A DNA stretch of 33,462 nucleotides from the IMG/VR virus record IMGVR_UViG_638341087_000016; one strand, written 5' to 3'. Source of the DNA: a virus. Taxonomy: Duplodnaviria; Heunggongvirae; Uroviricota; Caudoviricetes. Position numbers and translations under genes: made by a program. The notes beneath the pieces are model-generated. The model was not told the origin of the DNA, ran no database searches, and was given only the letters and a program-made list of their open reading frames with translations. Below are positions 1 through 32,875 of the stretch, one piece after another; the stretch's first letter is position 1, and every line of letters starts with the position of its first letter.

Positions 1-966
1 ATGAAGCTATACATCATCGGGAATGGGTTTGATCTGCATCACGAACTTGACACGAGCTATTTCTCATTTGGGGATTATCTTCGGAAGAAAGACCAAGACA
101 TTTACGATCACTTGGTTGATTTTATGGGATTTACTGACTTACCCCCTAAACTTTCCGCAGTTGATAAGTCAAAACATTTTCTTTGGTCTGATTTCGAAAA
201 CAGCTTAGCGGGTCTGGATACAGAGTCAGTGCTCGAAGAGTTTTGCTATCTTTTACCCCAAATTAGCAGCCCTGATTTTCGTGACAAGGACTGGGGCTCA
301 TTAAGCATTGAAATGGAACGTATACTAAAAAATTTAACCGAAGGGCTTTTAACACAATTCAAGTCATTTATATTGCAGGTTAACTACCCCGAACTTAATT
401 TAAATAAAAGATTGCGTATCGATTCTGACTCTATCTTTATCAGTTTTAATTATACTGAGACTCTTCAGAAATACTATGGTATTGATGATAGACAAATTTT
501 ATATATCCATGGAAAAGCATCATCAGATCAACAGTTGATTTTAGGTCATGGTATTGACCCTATCAACTTTGAAGAAAAGGAAGCAGTCCCGCCCGAAAAT
601 GCAACCGATGAAGAACTTGAAGAGTGGCGTCAGTGTATGGCTGATAATTACGATCACTCTTATGAAATGGGAAAGCAGACTATTAATAAATACTTCACTT
701 GTTCTTTTAAGAATACTGAAAAAGTCATTGCTGACAGCGCTAAATTTTTTAAAAATCTCAGCAACGTAGACGAAATCATCATCATCGGCCATTCGTTATC
801 ATCTGTAGATGTTCCCTACTTTTCTTTTATACATAGCATTGTTAGTGAAAATACGGAATGGATAGCCACCTATTATCAGGAAACTGAGCGTGAAGCACAT
901 CATACAACATTATGTGAGATTGGCATTAAATCTCCCAAACTGATTTCAGTAAGTAAACTTCTATAA
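1..966 (+). CDS. AbiH-like abortive infection protein
   Basis: 321-aa ORF beginning MKLYIIGNGFDLHHEL, the N-terminal signature I associate with the AbiH family; AT-rich relative to the phage core. Confidence 0.55.
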   Translation: MKLYIIGNGFDLHHELDTSYFSFGDYLRKKDQDIYDHLVDFMGFTDLPPKLSAVDKSKHFLWSDFENSLAGLDTESVLEEFCYLLPQISSPDFRDKDWGSLSIEMERILKNLTEGLLTQFKSFILQVNYPELNLNKRLRIDSDSIFISFNYTETLQKYYGIDDRQILYIHGKASSDQQLILGHGIDPINFEEKEAVPPENATDEELEEWRQCMADNYDHSYEMGKQTINKYFTCSFKNTEKVIADSAKFFKNLSNVDEIIIIGHSLSSVDVPYFSFIHSIVSENTEWIATYYQETEREAHHTTLCEIGIKSPKLISVSKLL

Positions 967-1550: not shown

Positions 1551-3275
1551 TCAGGCTATCAGGGGGCCGTATTTGCTTTTCAATGTGCCGGTTTTATTGG
1601 CCGTTGCGGTGAACTGCGCCGCCTGCCCACTGGCCCCCGTATTGGGGTGAGTATGTGATGCGGCAGTCTCTGCCAGCTCCCTCACCACGTCCAGGGTGTC
1701 GGTGAGCAGTGTCAGGACGTTAATCTCTTCGCTTCCCAGCTTTACCACCGGGGCAATCAGTTGTTGCGCCTGGGCCACACTTCGGCGAATGCCGCTGATT
1801 TTTTCAGTCAGTGCGCCGCTGACGTTTGACGTGACATCCCCTTTCACGTCGTCTGTAACATTGCCCGCGACATCCCGTTTCACGTTCCGGCCAACACTGA
1901 CGGAATTGTCCTTGCTGCAGGTTACTGTCAGGTTGCCGGATGTGCCGACGCTGTAATCCCCCTCGCTGATATGAACGACCGCCCCGGCCAGAAGTGTGGC
2001 CGTGCCAAGCACGGTTGTTTTATCTGTTGCCTGGACCGTAGTTTCACGGGCAACCACTTTGCGGATCTCTTCGTCGGTGGTGACTTCGCGAGTCATGGAG
2101 TTTTCGCGGATTGTCTGATCCGTCTGGCGTTCCCAGTCTCCGGCAACCGTCACGCGCTGCGATACACCATCGCGCTGTTGCTGCAACTGCTCACCGGGTT
2201 TAACCGCTGGCAGGTTATGACCCTCCGCCATAATCTGACGCACAAAGGGCTTATCCTGCCGCCCCTCAGTGAACCCAACTTCAACCAGCGTGCCAGGGGG
2301 CGGAAACTGAAACATTCCTGACTCGCTGCCCGCCATTGGCACAGGTAGTGGAACGGCAGAATAGATCGGCGTATTTGCGGCTGGCTTGCCGTCTTCGTCA
2401 AGCAGCTGGAGATCCACGGCATAGCGTGGGCGGAATGGATCGGCAATATCCCCCCCTGAAACATCCTCGCTTGGCGCTTCCACCCTAGCGAATCTTGGAA
2501 GATGCAGGCCGCTTGCCAGCTCCGGGAATGCGTTTTCAATCTGCCGCTGAATGGGTGATTTTTGCAATGGCTGGCCGTTGGCTTTGTTGCGGGGCTGCCA
2601 GGTAATTGCCATGTCATCGTTATTTAGCCGGACCTGGTTCAGCCGCTGGCCGTTTACCTCCGCACCCGGGCGCAGGCTCTGAATCATTGGCACAACCATT
2701 GAATTTCCGCCTGCCGATTCCTGGCTAAATTCGTGCGGGATCTCCACTGGTTTTCCCGCAAAAAGACTATGCTCCGCAGCGCCGACGAAGACATCCCCGT
2801 CCGGCAACTGATACCAAAGATAATCCGTCACTGAAAATGCACGGCCCAGACTGGCAAAAAGCTGATAGCCCGTGCCGCTGTGCGTAAAGTGGGGGATCGG
2901 TTTATCTGCATAAGCAGCGCCGACCGGCGTTGTGACGGTCAGCCCGCTTTGCTCACTTATCCAGTCAGTAATCTGGCGCAACGTTGGATGCTGGAAAGAA
3001 CACGGCCACAATTTATCAAAGATGCCGACCAGCTCACGCACGAACAACCGGCATGTTCCATTATCAGCAGGCTGTGACCGTTCGACGTACCCGGTAAACC
3101 AGCGCAGGACCAGACCATCATAACCAACATCGATACGCACCATTTTGCCGGTGTAATCTGTCTCTGTCCCTGCCGTAATAAACCCCCGACCGCACGCGTT
3201 CAGCTCCAGCACGATATTGCAGTCAATCAGATGGACCGGATCAGAGGAAAGGTACAGGCGTTTAATTGGTTTCAT
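1551..3275 (-). CDS. D: Late control gene D-like baseplate hub protein with a C-terminal spike-like extension
   Basis: 574 aa; N-terminal region has the gpD-type VGYDG...FTGYVE pattern; C-terminal region has short repeats and an SHTHPNTG motif resembling spike apex HxH motifs; ATG start and TGA stop verified. Confidence 0.65.
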   Translation of the reverse strand: MKPIKRLYLSSDPVHLIDCNIVLELNACGRGFITAGTETDYTGKMVRIDVGYDGLVLRWFTGYVERSQPADNGTCRLFVRELVGIFDKLWPCSFQHPTLRQITDWISEQSGLTVTTPVGAAYADKPIPHFTHSGTGYQLFASLGRAFSVTDYLWYQLPDGDVFVGAAEHSLFAGKPVEIPHEFSQESAGGNSMVVPMIQSLRPGAEVNGQRLNQVRLNNDDMAITWQPRNKANGQPLQKSPIQRQIENAFPELASGLHLPRFARVEAPSEDVSGGDIADPFRPRYAVDLQLLDEDGKPAANTPIYSAVPLPVPMAGSESGMFQFPPPGTLVEVGFTEGRQDKPFVRQIMAEGHNLPAVKPGEQLQQQRDGVSQRVTVAGDWERQTDQTIRENSMTREVTTDEEIRKVVARETTVQATDKTTVLGTATLLAGAVVHISEGDYSVGTSGNLTVTCSKDNSVSVGRNVKRDVAGNVTDDVKGDVTSNVSGALTEKISGIRRSVAQAQQLIAPVVKLGSEEINVLTLLTDTLDVVRELAETAASHTHPNTGASGQAAQFTATANKTGTLKSKYGPLIA

Positions 3276-15178: not shown

Positions 15179-15651
15179 GACGCGTCACCACGCTGGACAA
15201 TAAATTCCAGTTGCGACGCCTCCCAGATTTCGGGGTTTACGATGTCCCATTTCTTGCCCTTGAAAGGGATCGGCCCTTTTTCCACTTCACGCAGGACCAG
15301 CGGATCAACCAGCGGGACAACCACATCCAGAATGCATGACCCTTCGTCGTCGAACTCCGGGTCCACGGTGGGATCGGCTAACTTCAGTTCGTCGCGCAGC
15401 TCGTTGGCGAACTCATCCACCCAGGCCAGCACCAGGGCATAAATCAGCCCCGGCGAATATTTGCGGTAGGGGAAGTCATCCCACGACAAACGGGCGGTGT
15501 AAGTCAGCACTCCGATCCGGCGCTGGTTGTTTCCCAGCGCTTTGGCGTTGCGTACCAGCTCGCAATCCTCCATTGAACTGGAAAACATCTGCATGGCATC
15601 AGGCGGCAGATTTGCCGTAATAAACGCCGTCAGGCTTTCAAGCTGGCTCAT
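15175..15651 (-). CDS. Tail completion protein (gpR-like)
   Basis: 158 aa containing a LVLAW motif as in P2 gpR; overlaps L and the S-like gene. Confidence 0.6.
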   Translation of the reverse strand: MSQLESLTAFITANLPPDAMQMFSSSMEDCELVRNAKALGNNQRRIGVLTYTARLSWDDFPYRKYSPGLIYALVLAWVDEFANELRDELKLADPTVDPEFDDEGSCILDVVVPLVDPLVLREVEKGPIPFKGKKWDIVNPEIWEASQLEFIVQRGDAS

Positions 15652-16121
15652 ATCAGATGCACCCCCACGCGTGGTTGCCGCAGCATGTTTCGCATCACGT
15701 TGGCCGCCTCGGCCAGCAGGCTGGCGCGGGTGTCCTGGCTTTCCTGCCCCGGATGCGATTCACGCCGCCCGATGGTGGCGAACTCCCCCAGCAAATCGGC
15801 CTTTGCGCGGGCGTAGACCGCTTTTTTGTACTGGGCTGTTAACTGGGTTTCGTCGCCCATCTTTGCACCCGGTACATCTGCAGCCCGCTCGCAGGCTTTC
15901 GCGTTCCAGTACGTCACCACGTCGGCCAGCGCGTCGTTTACTTCCGCAATAGCAGCCAGCAGGGCCACGCCTGCGGTTTCTGGCGGCAGATCGGCGGGTA
16001 GCGTGCGCACCTTCTGAAACTCGGCCAGATCGAGATCGGGCCAGAATGTCACGCCGTTGGTGATCGCTGTTGGCGTCACCGTCACCGGCTTGCCGCTGAT
16101 ACTGAAACTTGGGCCACTCAT
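15648..16121 (-). CDS. L: Head completion/stabilisation protein L
   Basis: Follows M as in P2; start set to the ATG at 16119-16121, which has GAGG 7 nt upstream, rather than the longer ORF start at 16181. Confidence 0.75.
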   Translation of the reverse strand: MSGPSFSISGKPVTVTPTAITNGVTFWPDLDLAEFQKVRTLPADLPPETAGVALLAAIAEVNDALADVVTYWNAKACERAADVPGAKMGDETQLTAQYKKAVYARAKADLLGEFATIGRRESHPGQESQDTRASLLAEAANVMRNMLRQPRVGVHLI

Positions 16122-16223
16122 TGGCGCACCTCGGTTTTGCAATAGAAATGGGCTAACGGGTTCCACGGCCAACAACCGCATGGTTGATGCCTCCCCCGCG
16201 CCCGTCCCGGCTTGCGGGAGTCG

Positions 16224-16925
16224 TTAAAGCTGGGTCAGGCCGTTAATCCGGGCGCGGATTTTTTCGCGCATGGTCTTAACTCCGGCGTTTTTGTTGTACG
16301 CCGCCGCCTGGGCCAAAAGGGCGTCGGCCTGCTCCAGCGTGTTCACATCATCCACGGCAGTGGCACGCGGCTGCCCCTTCTCGTCGCGCAGCAGGTAAAG
16401 ACCGGCGAACTTGAACCACTTCGCGTTAATGTCTTCGTGCAAACGCCACTTTTCGCGGATGTTTTCAAACGTGCGGCTGAAATAGGGTTCGATGCTGTGA
16501 CCGGCTTCCGCCTGCATGATCGCCCACTCCAGCACCGTGTCGGCCACAAAGGCAGGCAGGTTGCTTTTGAAGTTTTCCGGCGTGGCCTGGCTCTCACTGA
16601 TAGCCACGTCAGCCCAGTCCAGCGCCTTGCCCATTTCCCCCGTATCGAACAGCCAGATCACGCAGTAAACCAGGGCCGGATTGGCAAAGCGGGCATCACC
16701 GGCGAGATATGCCTCGACGGTCGGCATCCAGCGCGGCAAAAGAACGTCGCGCTTCATGTCCATGCGTTCTGCACGCGTCAGACTGCGAAGCCGTTCAACA
16801 TCCCTTTCCAGCTCCAGCATTTGAATGTGAAAGCTGACCGGCGATGCCGTCAGGGCTTCGCACTTATCCAGCGCCTTTGTGGCTTTCACGCGTGCTCGGT
16901 GTCGCTGACACGGGGTCATGGCCAT
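16224..16925 (-). CDS. M: Terminase small (endonuclease) subunit M
   Basis: 233 aa with the P2 gpM pattern; position between N and L. Confidence 0.8.
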   Translation of the reverse strand: MAMTPCQRHRARVKATKALDKCEALTASPVSFHIQMLELERDVERLRSLTRAERMDMKRDVLLPRWMPTVEAYLAGDARFANPALVYCVIWLFDTGEMGKALDWADVAISESQATPENFKSNLPAFVADTVLEWAIMQAEAGHSIEPYFSRTFENIREKWRLHEDINAKWFKFAGLYLLRDEKGQPRATAVDDVNTLEQADALLAQAAAYNKNAGVKTMREKIRARINGLTQL

Positions 16926-16927
16926 TT

Positions 16928-17950
16928 TTACGCGCCCCCTCCCGGTGCAACTTCGCCGGTCGCAAGGGTGATTTTGTCGAATGCCGCATACAGCTCGTCA
17001 TGCTCGACGCCGTAACCTTCCATGCGCAGATAGTTATTCTCGAAGCGCTTGCGGTCGTCGTTCCATTCCGCTTTACGCTTACGTGTGCCCTGCTGGGTAT
17101 AGATATGCAGGTTGTCCAGCGTGGTGACGATAAGGCGCCCCTCCGGCATAAACGGCGGGGTGTACACGGTACGGCCAGCAATCTGGCGGCCAATAAGCTG
17201 CGCGGCGACTTTCTCAGTCGGGCGATCAATCTTATTCATCATGGTGGTGGCGTCGTTGCCGATAAGGTCAGCGGAAGCCAGCACAACCAGGCGCGGGTCA
17301 TTGCGGAATGGCTCATAAATGCAGGTGTGCACCAGGTCAGTGACTGCCGCATCCAGACCAATAAAGTCAGCACCCGACGCGCCGATAGTGACGGCATCAG
17401 AAATAATCTGCTCAGATGAACGGTCTTTAACGATTTTGTGCCAGCCGATGTTGACGTCTTCGCCATTCGGGTTGGCTTCCGGGTCTGTATCTTCTGCAAC
17501 ACTCGTTCCGTTGAACGCCACGCGCAGCATATCCAGCGCGAAAGATTCGTTGCTGAATGCCTGAATACGCTGGAAGAACTCCTCTTCGCTGCCCGCGTTC
17601 GCCCAGACAACCAGCAGGGAGTAAGGCAGATACGAACCGGAATCCGTTTCTACCAGCTTGTACTCGTTACCGGACACGCCCAGGGCGCGGGAGAAACGAC
17701 CATCTTTTTTACGCCCGGTGTAAATACCCGGTTTACCGGTGCTGACCACCTGGCCGGTGATCTGGTCCACATCCAGCACATTGGGCAGCAGGCGCAGGAA
17801 CTCAGAACTTTGCAGCAGGGCATTGCGCAGCTGGGTTTCTTTCGGATTTGTCAGCGAGAAGTAGCGCGACGTGTCCACCTGGCCGTTAGCTTTCGCCAGG
17901 CCTGCGGCAAACTTACGCAGCATCTGCTCTGCTTTTGGGGTTAATTGCAT
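16928..17950 (-). CDS. N: Major capsid protein N
   Basis: 340 aa, P2 gpN-like; position between O and M. Confidence 0.85.
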   Translation of the reverse strand: MQLTPKAEQMLRKFAAGLAKANGQVDTSRYFSLTNPKETQLRNALLQSSEFLRLLPNVLDVDQITGQVVSTGKPGIYTGRKKDGRFSRALGVSGNEYKLVETDSGSYLPYSLLVVWANAGSEEEFFQRIQAFSNESFALDMLRVAFNGTSVAEDTDPEANPNGEDVNIGWHKIVKDRSSEQIISDAVTIGASGADFIGLDAAVTDLVHTCIYEPFRNDPRLVVLASADLIGNDATTMMNKIDRPTEKVAAQLIGRQIAGRTVYTPPFMPEGRLIVTTLDNLHIYTQQGTRKRKAEWNDDRKRFENNYLRMEGYGVEHDELYAAFDKITLATGEVAPGGGA

Positions 17951-17978: not shown

Positions 17979-19040
17979 TTAAACAAACTCAAACGGTTCT
18001 TTGCTTCCGCCTGGCGCACTGCCAGGGCGGCGCGTATTGCCGTTTTCCATCGCTGACAACTTAGTCAGGACGGTAGTCAGCTGCGTGGTAAGGTTGTCCA
18101 TCTGGTTGCCAGCTGGCTGGCGACGGGCGGAAAAGTCACGGCGACGGCTGGCGCGTGGGCGCTTCGCTGGCGTCACATTGAATGACTTCATGACTTTTGC
18201 CAGGTTGGCTTTGGCGGCGCTGAATTCTTCCGCTTTGACTTCGTCTTCCGGGTTTTCGATAACGTCCTGCGCCAGCTCGGCCACCTCGTCGGCAGCATCA
18301 GCGATCTGGGCGGCAACATCTGCCACCACATCAGCGGCCTGTTCAGGGGTATCAACCGTGTCAGCATCACCCGTTGCGGCGTCTTTACCGCTTTTAAGCA
18401 GATCCAGCATTTGCTGAATGAGCGCTTTTAATTCTTCCATTTTTTCTCCGTCGCCCTCGGTGGGCTTGTCAGTGTTTGGCTCTGGGGTTGGCGTAAAATC
18501 TTTACTGGCCGAAAATAAACGCGACCAGAAAGAATTTTTTTTATCCGGTTTACTTGTCTGTAATTTTCCTAAACTGAATGTTTCCAGACTCCCGCGTTCG
18601 GCGTCCTTTTCTTCACCGGCTAAAACGAATTTAAGTTTTTCCGTTCCCAGACTTGCCGGAATATCCGTCACAGCCAGCCCAAAAAGATATTCACGACCAC
18701 TGCCTGCAAAATCAGTGACAAATTCTGCTGACGTAAATAACTTTTGCCCCTGCCGATTGGCATCAATTAAAAATTGATTTGGGATTAACTGGGCATATAA
18801 CTTCGTGACATCACCTTCCGTTTCCACTTTCAGCGCGTCCACTTCCCCCAGATTGCAGGTAAATTCACGTTCGCTGATATCGCATTGCGGATGGTGCGGC
18901 CAAATCATGGCCGTGTAGGTTTTGCGGGTGTAGGTTTCTGCCGCATCAATCAACCATTGCGGTTCAATGGTGCGACCGTCCACAGCCTTTCCAGATGTGG
19001 CAATACATAGCCAATCCGTGCGGTAATGAGATTGCGGCAT
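17979..19040 (-). CDS. O: Capsid scaffold protein O
   Basis: 353 aa; DGR.I...AET pattern and GLAVTD.PASLGTE motif as in P2 gpO; divergent from P. Confidence 0.8.
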   Translation of the reverse strand: MPQSHYRTDWLCIATSGKAVDGRTIEPQWLIDAAETYTRKTYTAMIWPHHPQCDISEREFTCNLGEVDALKVETEGDVTKLYAQLIPNQFLIDANRQGQKLFTSAEFVTDFAGSGREYLFGLAVTDIPASLGTEKLKFVLAGEEKDAERGSLETFSLGKLQTSKPDKKNSFWSRLFSASKDFTPTPEPNTDKPTEGDGEKMEELKALIQQMLDLLKSGKDAATGDADTVDTPEQAADVVADVAAQIADAADEVAELAQDVIENPEDEVKAEEFSAAKANLAKVMKSFNVTPAKRPRASRRRDFSARRQPAGNQMDNLTTQLTTVLTKLSAMENGNTRRPGSAPGGSKEPFEFV

Positions 19041-19216
19041 AACTGACCTTTAATAATGAATTTAATAACAATGATTCGTTTGTGGTGGTCAGTATTGCGA
19101 ATTGATTAAAACAGCGCGACCGCTTTATTTCTTATGTATTCGGTTATAAATACATAGCCACTTTTTACCGATATTTAATTATCAATTCTGCAAAATAATC
19201 CCGCCATAATAGCCGC
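19041..19216. promoter_or_regulatory. Divergent late promoter region between O and P with a dyad element
   Basis: 176-bp AT-rich gap between divergent head operons; dyad TTATGTAT...ATACATA at about 19133-19158 (TGT-N14-ACA). Confidence 0.4.
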
Positions 19217-21028
19217 ATGGCTAAATATTCCGATGAATTAAAAGAAGCGGCCCGCACGCTTTATATGAAAAGCTGGACGCCGAAAGATATTGCGCAGGAA
19301 CTGAATATTCCACCGCGTACAATTTACCACTGGGCTGATGTCGGGAAGTGGGCATCACTGCTGCCTGTTGAATCGGTGGAAAATGTCATCGCCCGCCGTA
19401 TCGACCAGCTCTCCCGCCGCGAGAAAAAAACAGCGCTGGAACTGGAAGAACTGCGCGATCTGATTGCTCACCATGTGAAACTCATGGCGCAGCGCAACAA
19501 ACACGCCGAAAAGCTGGCAGAAATTCAGGCCCAGAAAGCGGCTTATGATGGTGAAGGGTACTGCCTCAGCAGCGCAGGCGGGGAACCAGAGGAAAGAAAG
19601 CGCCGGTATAAGAAAAACGACGTTTCCGGTATTACACCGGAAATGCTCGACACCTGGGCGCGGGAACATCTCTTCGAGTACCAGCTGCACTGCCGCGAAC
19701 ATAAAGGCGAAGACTGGCGCTTCATTCTGAAAAGCCGACAGGTCGGCATGACCTATTATTTCGCCTGGGAGGCATTCGAAGATGCTGTCATTACCGGTGA
19801 TAACCAGGTCTTTTTCTCTGCAAGCCGCTCCCAGTCTGAAATCTTCCGTGAATACATCGTCCAGATCGCCCAGAACCATTTCGGCGTGACGCTGACGGGT
19901 AAAAATATCCGCCTCAGCAACGGCGCAATACTGCGCTTTTTGTCCACGAACGCCAGCACCGCGCAGGGCTTTAACGGCCACCTGTATGGCGATGAGGTTT
20001 TCTGGATCCCGAAATTCACGCGCCTGCACGAAGTTGCCAGCGCAATGGCAACGCATAACAAATACCGGACGACCTACTTTTCGACGCCCAGCGCGAAAAC
20101 GCACCAGGCTTACCCGGTATGGACTGGCGAAGCCTGGCGCGGGGACGACCCGAAACGCAAAGGTGTGGCGTTCCCGACAGAAAGCGAAATGCGCCAGGGT
20201 ATTCTCTGCCCGGACCAGATCTGGCGCTACATCATAACGATGGAAGACGCTATCGAAGGTGGCCTCGGTGCGCTTGTCGATATTGAACGGCTGCGCAACA
20301 AATACAGCCCGACCGCGTTCGCCATGCTCTACATGTGCCAGTTTGTTGACAGTAAGGACGCGGTGTTCAAGTTCTCCGCGCTTGTCGGCTGCGAAGTGGA
20401 CCGGGCCACATGGGGCGACTTTGATCTGACCGCTGCGCGGCCCTTCGGCAATCGCGAAGTATGGGCAGGCTTTGACCCGTCACGATCCGGCGACAACTCC
20501 ACCTTTGTGTTAATCGCGCCCCCCATAGAGGACGGCGAGCGCTTCCGCGTGCTGGCCGTCTGGCAATGGCAGGGCTTTAACTTCAGCTGGCAGGCCGACC
20601 AGATAAAGCAGCTTATGCGCCGCTTTAACATCACTTACATCGGGATCGATACAACCGGCATTGGTAAGGGCGTTTATGACCTGGTCAGCAAGTTTGCACC
20701 GCGCGAAGCCACACCCATTCTTTACAGCGTCGAAAGCAAAAACCGTCTGGTAATGAAGATGATCGACGTTGTCGAGCGTAAGCGCATCGAATGGGCAAAA
20801 GACGCCGTAGACGAAACGAACAAAGAGCGCGTCGAAATTCCGGCCAGCTTTATGGCTATCCGGCGCACGACAACCAACAGCGGCAACGCGCTGACGTTTG
20901 TTGCCGAACGTTCAGACGCGACCGGCCATGCAGATGTTTTCTTCGCTATCTCGCACGCCGTAATTAACGAACCTATCGATCACGAATATGACCGCCCATC
21001 GGGCTGGTACTTTGGGAAAGCAGCATGA
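19217..21028 (+). CDS. P: Terminase large (ATPase) subunit P
   Basis: 603 aa, P2 gpP-like; stop overlaps the Q start in ATGA. Confidence 0.85.
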   Translation: MAKYSDELKEAARTLYMKSWTPKDIAQELNIPPRTIYHWADVGKWASLLPVESVENVIARRIDQLSRREKKTALELEELRDLIAHHVKLMAQRNKHAEKLAEIQAQKAAYDGEGYCLSSAGGEPEERKRRYKKNDVSGITPEMLDTWAREHLFEYQLHCREHKGEDWRFILKSRQVGMTYYFAWEAFEDAVITGDNQVFFSASRSQSEIFREYIVQIAQNHFGVTLTGKNIRLSNGAILRFLSTNASTAQGFNGHLYGDEVFWIPKFTRLHEVASAMATHNKYRTTYFSTPSAKTHQAYPVWTGEAWRGDDPKRKGVAFPTESEMRQGILCPDQIWRYIITMEDAIEGGLGALVDIERLRNKYSPTAFAMLYMCQFVDSKDAVFKFSALVGCEVDRATWGDFDLTAARPFGNREVWAGFDPSRSGDNSTFVLIAPPIEDGERFRVLAVWQWQGFNFSWQADQIKQLMRRFNITYIGIDTTGIGKGVYDLVSKFAPREATPILYSVESKNRLVMKMIDVVERKRIEWAKDAVDETNKERVEIPASFMAIRRTTTNSGNALTFVAERSDATGHADVFFAISHAVINEPIDHEYDRPSGWYFGKAA

Positions 21029-22086
21029 CAAAGAAACAGCGTAATAATAAAAAATTCAGGTCCATGACCGGCAGCAAGGTTGAATCCTTCACGCCAGGGC
21101 GCGGAAGCGTGATCACATTTGGCGAACCCGAACCCATCCTGACGACCGGCACTGATTATCACAATATCTGGTATGACAATGAGTATGACCACTGGCGACT
21201 CCCGATTGATCGCCTGGCGCTGGCCCAGTTGCCGAACCTTAACGGCCAGCACGGTGGGGTACTGTATGCGCGGCGCAATATGGTTGCCGGTGGCTACATC
21301 GGCGGCGGCCTGACGCCTGACCAGGTCGAACAGGCTGTCTTTGATTACCTGCTGTTTGGTGACGTCGCTATCCTGAAAATTCGTAACGTATTCGGGGAAG
21401 TGATCGACCTGCTGCCGCTGCCGTCGCTGTATCTGCGCTGCCGAAAAGACGGGGCGTTTGCTGTTTTGCAGGAAGGGCCAGCACTTATCTATGAACCGGA
21501 AGACATCGTCTTTTTTAAAATGTACGACCCGCGCCAGCAGGTGTACGGCCTGCCTGACTATATCGGCGGCATCCATTCGGTGTTACTCAACAGTGAGGCA
21601 ACCATCTTCCGACGCCGTTACTACAATAATGGGGCACATATGGGCTTTATTCTCTATACCAGCGATCCGAATCTTACGCTGGAAATGGAAAATGAAATCA
21701 AAGAGAAGATCGCCCAGTCCAAAGGGCTGGGTAACTTCCGAAATATGTTTATCAACATCCCGAAGGGCGACCCGGAAGGGGTTAAAATCATGCCAGTGGG
21801 TGAAGTCAGCGCAAAGGATGAATTTGCCAACATCAAAGGGATAACCGCGCAGGATATCTTTACCGCCCACCGTTTCCCCGCTGGCCTGGCGGGTATCATC
21901 CCGACCAACGGCGCGGTAATGGGCAACCCTGAAACCGCCCGCACAACCTATCGCAAGGATGAAGTTATCCCCTTGCAGCGCAAGCTAATGAACGGCGTCA
22001 ATAATGACCCGGAGATCCCCGCACACTTGCACCTGGTTTTTGACGTGGATATCCCGGCAATTGCCACCGAAAAGGGCGAAAAATGA
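21025..22086 (+). CDS. Q: Portal protein Q
   Basis: 353 aa, P2 gpQ-like, downstream of P with an ATGA overlap. Confidence 0.85.
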   Translation: MTKKQRNNKKFRSMTGSKVESFTPGRGSVITFGEPEPILTTGTDYHNIWYDNEYDHWRLPIDRLALAQLPNLNGQHGGVLYARRNMVAGGYIGGGLTPDQVEQAVFDYLLFGDVAILKIRNVFGEVIDLLPLPSLYLRCRKDGAFAVLQEGPALIYEPEDIVFFKMYDPRQQVYGLPDYIGGIHSVLLNSEATIFRRRYYNNGAHMGFILYTSDPNLTLEMENEIKEKIAQSKGLGNFRNMFINIPKGDPEGVKIMPVGEVSAKDEFANIKGITAQDIFTAHRFPAGLAGIIPTNGAVMGNPETARTTYRKDEVIPLQRKLMNGVNNDPEIPAHLHLVFDVDIPAIATEKGEK

Positions 22087-22409
22087 GCGCAGTTAAGTTA
22101 AAATCCCCCCCATTATTAGCAATGGCGTGCGGGATGGTGAACATGCGAGTTTTTAAAATTAAATGTCCTGAATGCGGCTCACCGGCCATCATTCGCAAAT
22201 CTGACTGGAAAGATAAAAAACTGGCGTCTTTATACTGTGGCTGCACAGAAGTGGAATGTGGTCATACATTTGTTTATAGCGTTGAGTTTTCACATACCCT
22301 CAGCCCCAGCGGGCTGACCGGCAACAAGCTGGTTAAATTCCTGATTGACCGGCTCAAGCCGGAAGAACGTCAATTCGCGCTGGACCTGCTCAGTGGGCAA
22401 ACTACATAA
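22083..22409 (+). CDS. ogr: Ogr/Delta-family zinc-finger late transcription activator (candidate)
   Basis: KCPECG...YCGCTEVECGHTF Cys motif resembling P2 Ogr; start overlaps the Q stop in ATGA; the short form would start at ATG 22143. Confidence 0.6.
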   Translation: MSAVKLKSPPLLAMACGMVNMRVFKIKCPECGSPAIIRKSDWKDKKLASLYCGCTEVECGHTFVYSVEFSHTLSPSGLTGNKLVKFLIDRLKPEERQFALDLLSGQTT

Positions 22410-22671: not shown

Positions 22672-25464
22672 TTAATCTGAAAGTTCACCAATATCATCCA
22701 TTGGTTTTTTATCATTAAAAGATAGACGAAGTTTTTGTTCATGTAATGCAGTGATTTTTTTACAACTATCTACAGAAATATAATAAAACGACAAGCCATC
22801 GTTATTAATAAATTCCAAATTAATCCTAATAGACATCAGCGCGTACATCAATGGATTTTCATCCTTGAAATTATACAACCCCTTAACTAAGGAAATATTC
22901 TCATCAGAAATACTTTCAATTTTCAAATCAAATAAATTAGTATTCCGCAGACAGGAAAATACGCTCAAAAAATCCATGTAGTAAAGACCAGGAGACCCCA
23001 AACCCAAAACTCCTTTTGAATCTGTTATTCTCATACCTTTTGAGTAACGGTAAACACTTGCCTCTCCTTTAACCATGTAATGAATTGTTATAAGCTTATC
23101 GGAAGGTAGTTCACTTACATCTTCGATCTCATTTACATCTTTATATTGGCCTTTAATTCCATCAAGCATTTTATGAAGCCAAGCATAGACAAACACTTCA
23201 GCATGATGTGAACTATTCATTGAATAATGCACTTTATCAATTGACTGCAAGACTTCTCTCTTATTAATCAATGAATAGAATGGATTGCAGACAACTGAAT
23301 TTGACACAGGAATAGAATCAATATCTACGAATTTATTAAAATACCCACCTAATGATATTGATACTTTATCTATGTATTTATTAACCAGAACCTTATCAAG
23401 GTCAGAAGAAACAATAGAATTTGCGATTAATTCATTTTTTACAGAAATTATACTTTCAAGATGCTCTGCAACCTCCATCCGATTTGTTTCTTGAGAAGAT
23501 CCTTCATTAATCAACTCTAATAAAGCTGAAAATTCATCACCTTTCAAATATGATATAAGTGATTGCAGTTCATGAGTTGTTATTTTTGTATTTTTAATAA
23601 ACTCTTTTTTATTACGTATAAAAATAGGATTGAGGTTGTTTTTATTAAATAATGTTTGAGTCATTAAAAGGGATACTGCTTTGAAAGCATCGTTATTTAT
23701 TGAAAAGGTTGCAACCTCATAATCAGGTATATCTCTTAAAGTTCTACTTGCATCAAAATCAGGTTCAGATGGGACTGTAAATATAACATCATACACGCCA
23801 CTCTTATAAAAAAGATCTTCTAGGAATGAAGGTGCTAACCATTTCATTAAATTCTGTTTTATTATTCTCAATTCCTCCTGATGCCCATCACTTTTTTCAG
23901 ATAAATAGCACAGCCTAATAATCAGTAAAGTTATAACCTGTCTTACACACGATACCATCTTGTTCTCAATGATACTAAGGGTTTCGCCATCATCAGATGA
24001 CTCTGGATAACGAAATTTCTCAGTCAAGAATCGAGTATTCAGGCTAAATGCCAAATAATTCTTTGACAAGATGTTGTCTCTCACCGTTGACATATATAAA
24101 TCAAAAAAACGATATTCTGGATCACCTAAACTATATTGAGCACGATGTTCCAATGACGGTGATATCAATTTATAAAATTCATCATATTGCTCATTATCAT
24201 AAATATACCTTCCCAAATCCATAATCGATCGAAGAGCATCACACACTATATTATAGTTTTTATACCCACTCACTTCAGAACTAACCTTCATATAAAAAGC
24301 AGCAAAAATTGAATACTCTATATTATTTTTTTTGTTAGTATAACCAAAAGAGTGATTGAGGTTATGTATTACTTTAACTAATTCAGTTTCACTAACTAAT
24401 GTGAAGATAGCTCTTATGCTAAAATCTAACGCTAACTCATTACCACTAAAAAGACTATTTCTTAAGCTAATAACTACTGCATCTTCATACTTACCGTAAT
24501 TCAAGAAGCTTTCAGGAGCTGAACTGAACACCAATCCTTTTTTCAATAGTTTTGTAACATTACTAATTAATAGCTCATCGATCGACGCTCCATCTTGCAC
24601 TTCAATATGAACCGATGAGGTTGATAGTGGATATATAAAGTTAAGATTCACGCGTAAATCAGTACGTACCACTTTCGAAAAACGCTCTAGCTCATTGTTA
24701 ATTTCTTTAAAGCAAATTGGACAAAAATCATTAATAATGACATTTTGATTATTTTGGAAAATATTTAACTTACGTTGTTCTTTATTGATAAAATCGGAAT
24801 CCCACCCATAATGAATATATTCAAAATCATTAATCATGTTTAAAAATTTATTTTCTATAGTTCTTCTACGTTCGTCAATCAATAAATAATCATTTTTAGC
24901 CTTATCAAGCTCAAAAAATAAACGATCAGTTATTATAGTTGGATTCTCAGTAACATTATATAATTTCAGATACATTGAACCATAATTAAAAATAAAGTAT
25001 AACGATACAAAAATGGATATAGCATAAGTAATCATGCCGCCACCACATGAAAGCAATACGATACCACTTAAAAGACTAAAAATAGAATTTAAACTAAACT
25101 TTAAAAAACTAGTTTTCCGCAACAACATCGACTTACAAATATTTTCAAAGCCATGTTCAGAATAATTAGAAACCTGACTAACAAACATTCCCATAAATGT
25201 AATTGATAGTGCAGCAATAGTTCCATGTATGCCTAAAACTCCCGCCCAAACACTAGTAGTCCAATTCAATGGGGAATTATTGAGAAAAGATGGTGTTACA
25301 AGTAAATACTTTACCCCTTCATCAACATATCTAGAGTAGATTACACCGGAAATACCCAACCCGACCAGAATAAAGTAGATCAAGAAGATAATTATAACTT
25401 CCCTATTTATACTTAAAAAACCATTATTAAAAATAATTTTTCTTTCCAAAATCAGACCCCACAT
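22672..25464 (-). CDS. Large membrane-anchored protein of unknown function; candidate single-gene anti-phage cargo
   Basis: 930-aa ORF with ATG start; about four N-terminal hydrophobic helices in residues 20-160 and a roughly 770-aa soluble region; very AT-rich coding sequence; no Walker A or other motif recognised by eye. Confidence 0.8.
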   Translation of the reverse strand: MWGLILERKIIFNNGFLSINREVIIIFLIYFILVGLGISGVIYSRYVDEGVKYLLVTPSFLNNSPLNWTTSVWAGVLGIHGTIAALSITFMGMFVSQVSNYSEHGFENICKSMLLRKTSFLKFSLNSIFSLLSGIVLLSCGGGMITYAISIFVSLYFIFNYGSMYLKLYNVTENPTIITDRLFFELDKAKNDYLLIDERRRTIENKFLNMINDFEYIHYGWDSDFINKEQRKLNIFQNNQNVIINDFCPICFKEINNELERFSKVVRTDLRVNLNFIYPLSTSSVHIEVQDGASIDELLISNVTKLLKKGLVFSSAPESFLNYGKYEDAVVISLRNSLFSGNELALDFSIRAIFTLVSETELVKVIHNLNHSFGYTNKKNNIEYSIFAAFYMKVSSEVSGYKNYNIVCDALRSIMDLGRYIYDNEQYDEFYKLISPSLEHRAQYSLGDPEYRFFDLYMSTVRDNILSKNYLAFSLNTRFLTEKFRYPESSDDGETLSIIENKMVSCVRQVITLLIIRLCYLSEKSDGHQEELRIIKQNLMKWLAPSFLEDLFYKSGVYDVIFTVPSEPDFDASRTLRDIPDYEVATFSINNDAFKAVSLLMTQTLFNKNNLNPIFIRNKKEFIKNTKITTHELQSLISYLKGDEFSALLELINEGSSQETNRMEVAEHLESIISVKNELIANSIVSSDLDKVLVNKYIDKVSISLGGYFNKFVDIDSIPVSNSVVCNPFYSLINKREVLQSIDKVHYSMNSSHHAEVFVYAWLHKMLDGIKGQYKDVNEIEDVSELPSDKLITIHYMVKGEASVYRYSKGMRITDSKGVLGLGSPGLYYMDFLSVFSCLRNTNLFDLKIESISDENISLVKGLYNFKDENPLMYALMSIRINLEFINNDGLSFYYISVDSCKKITALHEQKLRLSFNDKKPMDDIGELSD

Positions 25465-25756
25465 TTAATAAGACAACATGATTTATTAATTATCTAAAAA
25501 TCTCTGCAATGATATTGTATTACATAAATCTTCAAATAACATTAATCATTCTATCTTGAAACTTGTCTTAAACAAGATTACCTCTTTACTCTGCTGAGTC
25601 AAACAGCCTAGCCCACTCACTTGTATCACTCATCTTTAACATCGCAGCGTAGTTTCTAACTGGAGCATACCGAATATGACCGCTATTAACATTATGCCGT
25701 AACTGCATATTTAGATATTGGATTAGGGGCATCGCGCTGACAGAACTCAAATGCGG

Positions 25757-25778
25757 GCTCTTTGCCGCCCGCCCCCGC
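25757..25778. other. cos-like GC-rich element (candidate cohesive-end site)
   Basis: Minus strand reads GCGGGGGCGGGCGGCAAAGAGC, similar in composition and orientation to the P2 cos end as I recall it (GGCGAGGCGGGGAAAGCAC). Confidence 0.3.
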
Positions 25779-25828
25779 AGAATCACGCTATCCGACGCAA
25801 CCAGCTGCGACGGATAGCGTGATTTAAT

Positions 25829-31861: not shown

Positions 31862-32875
31862 ATGACAATTAAGAAACTCGATGATGGTCGTTATGAAGTG
31901 GACATCAGACCTGCAGGGCGCAACGGAAAGCGCATCCGCAGGAAATTTGACAAGAAAAGTGAGGCTGTAGCTTTTGAGAAACACACTCAATACAACCATC
32001 ACGATAAAGAATGGTTGGCTAAACCGACAGATAAGCGGCATCTGTCTGAATTAACGAAAGTCTGGTGGGATCTGAAAGGCAAGCATGAAGAACACGGAAA
32101 ATCTAATTTGGGTAAGATTGAAATCTTTACCCGGATCACTGATGACCCTTGCGCGTTCCAGATAACCAAAGCGCTTATTAGCCAGTACAGCATGACTCGC
32201 AGAGGGCAAGGCATAAAACCGACCAGTATTAACCGCGATCTTACCTGCCTGAGTGGTATGTTTACTGCGCTAATTGATGCGGAATTGTTCTTTGGTGAAC
32301 ATCCTTTCAGAGGGATGAAAAAGCTCAAGGAGCAGAAACCAGAAACCGGCTATCTGACGCAGGAAGAAATAACATTGTTGCTTGCCAATCTTGACGGGGA
32401 CAACAAGAAAATCGCGATTCTCTGTTTAAGTACCGGCGCTCGATGGGGTGAGGCCGCGAAACTGAAAGCTGAGAACGTAATACAGAATCGGGTGACGTTC
32501 GTTAAAACAAAGACGAACAAACCGCGTACTGTCCCTATCTCTGAGGAAGTGGCTGTAATGATTGCGGGTAAAGGTTATCTGTTCCCTGATGCCTCATACC
32601 CGAAGTTCAGGCGAACAATGAAAGATGTAAAACCAGATCTACCGGACGGGCAAGCAACTCACGCATTGCGTCACAGTTTTGCTACCCACTTTATGATTAA
32701 CGGCGGGAGTATCATCACCTTGCAGAGAATACTGGGACATTCACGGATAGAGCAGACAATGGTTTATGCGCACTTTGCCCCGGAGTATCTTCAGGATGCT
32801 GTTTCACTCAATCCGCTACGTGGTGGTGTTGACTCCCAGAGTGTCCACACTGTGTCCACACTGTGTCCACAGTAG
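31862..32875 (+). CDS. int: Tyrosine integrase (P2 Int-like)
   Basis: 337 aa with near-identity to P2 Int over long stretches (KKLDDGRYEVDIRP.GRNGKRIRRKFDKKSEAVAFEK; HALRHSFATHFMINGGSIITLQRILGH.RIEQTMVYAHFAPEYLQDA). Confidence 0.95.
   Translation: MTIKKLDDGRYEVDIRPAGRNGKRIRRKFDKKSEAVAFEKHTQYNHHDKEWLAKPTDKRHLSELTKVWWDLKGKHEEHGKSNLGKIEIFTRITDDPCAFQITKALISQYSMTRRGQGIKPTSINRDLTCLSGMFTALIDAELFFGEHPFRGMKKLKEQKPETGYLTQEEITLLLANLDGDNKKIAILCLSTGARWGEAAKLKAENVIQNRVTFVKTKTNKPRTVPISEEVAVMIAGKGYLFPDASYPKFRRTMKDVKPDLPDGQATHALRHSFATHFMINGGSIITLQRILGHSRIEQTMVYAHFAPEYLQDAVSLNPLRGGVDSQSVHTVSTLCPQ
32841..32872 (+). repeat. 11-bp tandem direct repeat (gtgtccacact, about 2.9 copies) at the 3-prime end of int
   Basis: gtgtccacact gtgtccacact gtgtccacag, immediately before the int stop codon. 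Confidence 0.8.

Follow-up and report, generated by a model that had tools for sequence, protein, structure and literature searches.

P2-like phages turn on their late genes by means of a zinc-finger activator that works through the C-terminal domain of the RNA polymerase alpha subunit, a textbook example of such control. To our knowledge, this control has been mapped only in the P2, 186 and P4 group, where the sites are of the form TGT-N12-ACA. Activator sites of this class serve P2 and also the 186 B, P4 Delta, PSP3 and phiR73 activators, and the P2 record gives one activator site (3057-3087) that is common to pO and pP and lies 55-56 bp from each start. We analyzed a stretch of viral DNA of 33,462 nucleotides (IMG/VR record IMGVR_UViG_638341087_000016; hereafter the window), the whole of which is a K139/HP1-type P2-like prophage with about 99% identity to Salmonella phage SI7. 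The stretch around the region studied here is 98.9% identical to the Salmonella phages SI7, SW3 and SW5 (Peduoviridae, genus Irrigatiovirus). A preliminary description of the window had placed a candidate activator site in the divergent O/P late-promoter region of a P2-like prophage, and this setting was borne out by the PHROG matches of the flanking genes and by the phage relatives that were found.

Immediately to the left of the region, on the minus strand, lies an O-like head scaffolding/protease gene (17979-19040; phrog_73), and beyond it on the same strand are genes identified by PHROG matches as N, the major capsid gene (16928-17950), M, the small terminase gene (16224-16925), and L (15648-16181). 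To the right, on the plus strand, are a P-like gene for the large (ATPase) subunit of terminase (19217-21028; terminase large subunit PHROGs), a Q-like portal gene (21025-22086; phrog_68, E = 4.6e-118) and an Ogr/Delta-family zinc-finger gene, the candidate activator (22083-22409; PF04606, E = 3.5e-16). The P protein is 99% identical to that of SI7, 48.5% identical to K139 P and about 40% identical to P proteins of the P2 type. The leftward late operon is about 17.6 kb long and begins with O, followed by tail, lysis and baseplate genes up to a D-like gene. Its genes from O to D are tightly packed with short gaps, a terminator-like hairpin follows it (1483-1460, minus strand), and no convincing internal promoter or terminator was found in the late operon of the window from gene packing or from promoter and terminator scans. 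The divergent rightward unit consists of P, Q and ogr. This gene order is like that of Vibrio phage K139 and unlike that of P2; together with the divergent O/P pair, it identifies the 176 bp between the scaffold gene and the terminase ATPase gene (19041-19216) as the divergent late-promoter spacer. Rfam gave no match for an RNA element at 18800-19500.

At the left end of the window, just past the D-like tail gene and the late-operon terminator, is an AbiH-family abortive-infection gene (1-966, plus strand; PF14253, E = 2.4e-60; PADLOC AbiH). An ORF of 930 aa (22672-25464, minus strand) separates the ogr/terminator region from the replication genes; in P2, we take this position to be that of the old and tin genes. 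The ORF matched PHROGs of unknown function alone (phrog_10073), with no match in Pfam or PADLOC, and may be a cargo or defence gene. In the integrase gene (31862-32875), close to its 3' end, the 11-bp unit TGTCCACACTG is repeated in tandem at 32842-32871, and these repeats could be arm-type Int binding sites or part of attP.

The element proposed in the preliminary description as the activator site was a TGT-N14-ACA dyad. This dyad is present, with TGT at 19135-19137, ACA at 19152-19154 and 14 nt between them, and it is contained (19135-19154) in a perfect 8-bp inverted repeat, TATGTATT-N8-AATACATA (19133-19156), the arms of which occupy 19133-19140 and 19149-19156 on either side of an 8-nt spacer. 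The bare TGT-N14-ACA pattern occurs 10 times in the window, with about 8 expected; TGT-N12-ACA has 9 matches, none of them intergenic, and the counts of TGT-N8..18-ACA in the window are all near chance expectation. Of 2000 dinucleotide shuffles of the 176-bp spacer, 12.7% yielded a perfect inverted repeat with arms of 8 bp or longer separated by no more than 20 nt. The preliminary description had suggested, as a check, a search for the same dyad at other late operons in the prophage; the sole other intergenic TGT-N14-ACA (22638) is found downstream of the gene for 930 aa, and its arms are dissimilar.

The terminase protein was used as a query against viral contigs, which yielded 80 loci, from 100% down to 54% protein identity, and the 200 bp upstream of the P start codon were aligned for 56 distinct sequences. 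Of these homologous upstream regions, 3 retained ACA, 18 retained TGT and 3 had complementary arms, and 52 kept the TTCGG beside the palindrome. The right arm is replaced by ACTGGATA, AATGGTTA or AATAGTTA even where the terminase is 98-99% identical. In the conservation profile, positions 19147-19153 are unconserved, and the right arm falls within the variable N8 of a conserved TTCGG dyad. An exact 12-nt direct repeat, AATACATAGCCA, was also noted, with one copy in the 5' coding region of O (19002-19013) and a second (19149-19160) made up of window-specific spacer sequence and the right half of the TTCGG dyad; of this second copy, only ATAGCCA is shared by close relatives. The flagged palindrome exists because this second copy creates it, and the repeat itself could be due to chance or to a small conversion event. 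From these comparisons, the palindrome was judged to be an incidental, lineage-specific feature that arose by chance. These data do not support its reading as a variant of the P2 TGT-N12-ACA site with altered spacing: the arms are lost even beside 98-99% identical terminases, and the conserved element is TTCGG-N14-CCGAA, which is offset by 6 bp and has another sequence and another geometry.

Conserved blocks in the alignment of the 56 relatives were CAGTATT (19090-19096), GCGCGACCGCTTTATTTC (19114-19131), ATTCGGTTATA (19138-19148), TAGCC (19155-19159), CCGATATTTAAT (19168-19179) and CATAATAGCCGCATG (19205-19219). In distant relatives, the blocks take the form of a clean palindrome, TTCGGWTA-N8-TAWCCGAA, and an extra TTCGG or CCGAA is often found 10-11 bp further out. 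The core conserved dyad of the window, TTCGGTTA-N8-TAGCCACT, was located from the conservation profile at 19139-19162, with its centre at 19150.5. It matches 11 of the 14 positions of the clade consensus TTCGGWTA-N8-TAWCCGAA, its right half being degenerate in the window lineage (CCACT), and it overlaps the flagged palindrome at an offset of 6 bp. The earlier proposal of a candidate activator dyad in the O/P spacer was correct in its location, which a strong candidate overlaps, and mistaken in its motif, which is TTCGG and not TGT/ACA.

A set of 46 representatives with pairwise identity of at most 80% was aligned on the dyad centre. The resulting half-site profile shows TTCGG at -21.5 to -17.5 and at -11.5 to -7.5, and CCGAA at +7.5 to +11.5 and at +17.5 to +21.5. 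The full array of four half-sites is mirror-symmetric about 19150.5 with tandem half-sites 10 bp apart, and in the window it extends over 19129-19172. It consists there of TTCTT (19129-19133, weak), TTCGG (19139-19143), CCACT (19158-19162, weak) and CCGAT (19168-19172), so two of the four half-sites, TTCTT and CCACT, are degenerate in this lineage.

The exact palindrome TTCGGWTA-N8-TAWCCGAA occurs at 120 loci or more in IMG/VR. Of the 120 matches listed, 88 adjoin O-like and/or P-like genes, mostly between a divergent pair, and the O-like and P-like proteins at these listed loci are 33-79% identical to those of the window; 3 of the 120 listed adjoin an Ogr-like gene. A further 29 of those listed are without homology to the window, which is approximately the chance number according to a rough estimate from the 16-position pattern and the size of the collection. 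At least 11 of the 14 consensus positions are present in 156 of 162 O/P spacers of related loci, including those of K139 and Cronobacter phage ESSI-2, and the TTCGG dyad is conserved in phages that infect Salmonella, Cronobacter and Vibrio. Within the window, no second copy was found with the consensus at up to 3 mismatches, and a position weight matrix search (core, half-site and full array) gave 26.2 for the O/P copy and 9.4 for the next best. With one copy in the window, there is no replicate inside this genome. The dyad does not recur at other late operons of the window because there is essentially one long late operon, and a single copy fits a two-promoter architecture.

Predicted -10 hexamers flank the dyad on both sides. 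That of the P-Q-ogr promoter is CATAAT (19205-19210, plus strand), which is near-invariant, and that of the O operon promoter is AATACT (19091-19096, minus strand), the complement of which is conserved as part of CAGTATT. The dyad centre is equidistant from the two hexamers, at exactly 57 bp from each. On the P side, a -10-like hexamer is centred at +57 in 37 of the 46 representatives and at +58 in 4 more; on the O side, one is centred 57 bp away in 26 of the 46, and no other offset was found in more than 12 of the 46. The 57-bp spacing does not depend on the distance between the dyad centre and the P start codon, being kept at 56 bp and at 121 bp alike. No conserved -35 was detected across the 46 representatives, and a promoter scan of 18900-19350 returned no sigma-70-type -35/-10 pair. 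Judged from the sequence only, the arrangement is that of an activator-dependent sigma-70 promoter with a -10 and without a -35. We define here a TTCGG dyad class, the putative O/P operator of K139/HP1-type peduoviruses, and the window has both its motif and its 57-bp -10 spacing.

On the basis of these positions, transcription of P-Q-ogr is predicted to start at about 19217 and that of the O operon at about 19083-19086, the latter with a leader of about 45 nt carrying an AAAGG Shine-Dalgarno sequence. Relative to these starts, each promoter would have the dyad centre near -66.5 and its proximal pair of half-sites near -52. Other candidate -10 elements were considered and rejected. The concentric repeat GAATTGAT/ATCAATTC (19099-19106/19181-19188), as a symmetric -10 pair, is weakly conserved, and the conserved -10 hexamers are elsewhere; TTTAAT (19174-19179), as the -10 of the P promoter, was passed over for CATAAT, which is near-invariant and has the fixed 57-bp spacing.

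In the window, CATAAT is located 6 nt before the P start codon (19205-19219), and this arrangement is near-invariant across relatives. CATAAT-N6/7-ATG was found in 23 of the 25 short-spacing representatives, in which P starts about 66.5-67.5 bp from the dyad centre, and a Shine-Dalgarno match of at least 4 nt is absent from all 25; GAGG- or GGAG-like motifs precede P in phages where the spacing is longer. The spacing of CATAAT and the absence of a Shine-Dalgarno sequence point to a P mRNA that, in the window lineage, is probably leaderless and starts at its own ATG. P2 pV, the start of which coincides with the V start codon in the annotation of the P2 record, is a precedent for a leaderless late mRNA.

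A divergent Ogr-like activator had been assumed in the preliminary description, and the product of 22083-22409 is indeed a divergent protein of the Ogr/Delta family. In BLASTP, it showed 32% identity to P2 Ogr over 38 aa (E = 3e-5), and it is 49% identical to K139 Orf13. Its motif is CX2CX22CX4C, seen as CPEC-X22-CTEVEC in the translation. The start of the long ORF, of 108 aa, overlaps the stop codon of Q (ATGA), and a short form of 88 aa could start at 22143. The 20-codon N-terminal extension (22083-22145) is conserved as protein in a relative (L038; KL.S.PLLA.ACG..N). The ATGA overlap and the conserved extension suggest that ogr is translationally coupled to the late P-Q operon, and such coupling would mean positive feedback. 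The order P-Q-ogr is kept in 112 of the 116 loci with enough flanking sequence. Another ORF, of 66 aa (25586-25786), was rejected as an Ogr/B-like gene, as it has no match in Pfam and the cysteine motif is absent.

The link between the Ogr-like protein and the dyad is correlative and is drawn from co-occurrence and covariation. In 8 loci (L063-L069 and L079), the half-sites are changed symmetrically to TTCGT..(G/A)CGAA, and DCNMRFS replaces ECGHTFV in the Ogr-like protein; in 3 loci (L061, L062 and L075), the half-sites are TTAGG..CTTAA, and the Ogr-like protein has HTYV and other substitutions. This covariation comes from two independent lineages only, and related sequences share ancestry. 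Two other relatives (L145 and L192) carry, in this order, an Ogr-like gene, genes for small membrane proteins, a four-site TTCGG array and a tail-only operon. The dyad, at 13961-13984 in L145 and at 1190-1213 in L192, precedes that operon, and AATAAT is found at +57. The operon contains R, FI, FII, E, T, W, J, I, H, G … D, which are tail, baseplate and fibre genes, with head genes absent, and its R-to-D proteins are 33-64% identical to those of the window. Their gene content suggests clusters of the tailocin type, or else phages in which the tail operon has a promoter of its own. The suggested check, recurrence of the dyad at another late operon, thus has a positive outcome for the TTCGG dyad in these relatives, and not for TGT-N14-ACA.

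The conservation and geometry of the array, and its co-occurrence and covariation with the Ogr-like gene, lead us to regard it as likely that the TTCGG array (19129-19172) is the shared operator of the Ogr-like activator and controls both divergent late promoters. In the mechanism that we infer, with its protein binding, activation and transcription starts, the Ogr-like protein (22083-22409) would bind the four-half-site array as a multimer and, from this single central site, would recruit RNA polymerase to two divergent promoters lacking a -35. One of them (CATAAT, 19205-19210) would drive P-Q-ogr, with the P transcript beginning at its own ATG, and the other (AATACT, minus strand, 19091-19096) would drive the operon from O to D (about 17.6 kb). 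The dyad centre is predicted near -66.5, as against -55 in P2, so the mechanism may not be strictly P2-like.

This position is among the points that favour a different reading, in which the array is a real operator bound by a host factor or by a different phage regulator, such as a late-gene repressor or a Cox/CII-type protein; another is that its tie to the Ogr-like protein is correlative. We consider this reading unlikely, although it deserves some weight. The array is conserved across Salmonella, Cronobacter and Vibrio phages and at many more diverged IMG/VR loci, changes in its half-sites accompany changes in the Ogr-like protein in two lineages, and the array and the Ogr-like gene occur together at a tail-only cluster with no P, Q or head genes between them. 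The promoters are also without a -35, as in activator-dependent promoters. Somewhat more doubtful is a version of our favoured model with two back-to-back units in place of one shared site, so that the proximal tandem pair alone would serve each promoter, CCACT + CCGAT for P and TTCTT + TTCGG for O. Such pairs would be centred near -52, close to the -55 of P2, their half-sites 10 bp apart would be on one helix face, and the half-sites that are degraded differ between lineages. However, the inner palindrome TTCGGWTA-N8-TAWCCGAA is the best conserved part and its N8 is fixed in length, all four sites are kept at the one-directional tail promoter of L192, and each proximal pair in the window includes one degenerate half-site.

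That the inverted repeat TATGTATT-N8-AATACATA, with its TGT-N14-ACA, is itself the site of the Ogr-like activator and a spacing variant of the P2 site seems to us very improbable. The repeat is perfect (8 + 8 bp) and is in the correct spacer, and the sites TGTTGT-N13-ACAACA of RSA1/RSY1, compared with the TGT-N12-ACA of P2-family sites, indicate that spacing variants exist in the family. Nevertheless, no more than 3 of the 56 distinct relatives keep its arms, which are lost despite 98-99% identical terminases and near-identical Ogr-like proteins. The right arm lies within the variable spacer of the conserved dyad, 12.7% of shuffles give such a repeat, and a similar dyad is absent elsewhere in the window. 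If the phages are viable, the natural variants L005, L010 and L013 are in effect mutants of the dyad spacer. A function of the conserved dyad in packaging (cos), replication or recombination is brought to mind by the adjoining terminase gene and is, in our view, hardly credible: in the P2 record, cos is beside Q and outside the O/P spacer, the -10 hexamers stand at a fixed distance on both sides of the dyad, and the same array is found before a tail-only operon.

If the TTCGG array is the Ogr operator of K139/HP1-type phages, the late switch would be defined for a large and widespread prophage group, apparently extending to related tail-only clusters. The promoter annotation would be corrected in records such as that of K139, and naturally diverged activator/operator pairs would become available for studying how a small zinc-finger fold reads DNA. 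The TTCGG element lies 6 bp from an incidental palindrome and was revealed only by comparison with relatives. A broader proposal, which we see as evenly poised between holding and failing, is that the K139-type Ogr homologues form a separate DNA-specificity class in the Ogr/Delta family, reading a four-half-site TTCGG palindrome that lies upstream of the P2 position by about one helical turn. According to this proposal, one copy would suffice to drive all of the late programme from a divergent pair of promoters without a -35, one of them with a leaderless terminase mRNA; the activator-plus-operator module would have been carried into tail-only, tailocin-like clusters; and the co-evolving TTCGT and TTAGG variants would be natural orthogonal activator/operator pairs. 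No description of a TTCGG-type late operator was found in the text-searched literature, the reach of which stopped short of the K139 genome and P4 Delta papers.

Among the described phages, K139 (Longwoodvirus) shares with the window a long O-to-baseplate operon, a divergent P-Q unit and then a zinc-finger regulator, and its O/P spacer (the P16/P17 region) contains TTCGGgtgaaTTCGGATATGGGGTTATATCCGAA. It differs from the window in an extra gene, orf14, between Q and orf13 and in the better preservation of all four half-sites. In the K139 record, only putative sigma-70 -35/-10 hexamers overlapping the dyad are given, and the activator site is unannotated. The annotated -35/-10 hexamers of promoter P16 lie inside the TTCGG dyad (L203 2418-2449; record 15488-15519), and a TATGAT located 6 nt before the P start codon is a better fit to the clade-wide -10 position. 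The Ralstonia phages RSA1/RSY1 and Stenotrophomonas phage Smp131 are similar to the window in having sequence-predicted dyads upstream of late operons and in carrying an Ogr homologue. Their motifs, however, are of the TGT type (TGTTGT-N13-ACAACA, TGT-N12-ACA) and are present at four late promoters, whereas that of the window is of unrelated sequence and occurs once per genome.

The P2 pO/pP region is alike in having a single dyad between the divergent O/P operons, equidistant from both promoters, with a -10 present and a -35 absent, and an activator with a CX2CX22CX4C zinc finger (Pfam Ogr_Delta). An activator of this kind is encoded in the window, and the candidate site is upstream of the late operons and common to the divergent O/P pair. 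The window differs from P2 in its motif (TTCGG…CCGAA vs TGT…ACA), in its four half-sites with tandem copies 10 bp apart, in the distance between the inner half-site centres (19 bp vs 15), and in the predicted dyad centre (about -66.5 vs -55). Its activator gene follows Q, whereas that of P2 is by att/int, and it has two late transcription units, whereas P2 has four. The likeness of TAGCCA to the TAAGCCA/TTAGCCA of P2, for which the pO/pP, pF and pV sites were compared, is superficial and was not taken as homology. An intergenic dyad of the P2 type, centred near -55, is not among the 9 TGT-N12-ACA matches of the window. In the best-supported model, the TTCGG operator would work like the P2 pO/pP site, yet through a dyad that stands outside the TGT-N12-ACA class in both its sequence and its position.
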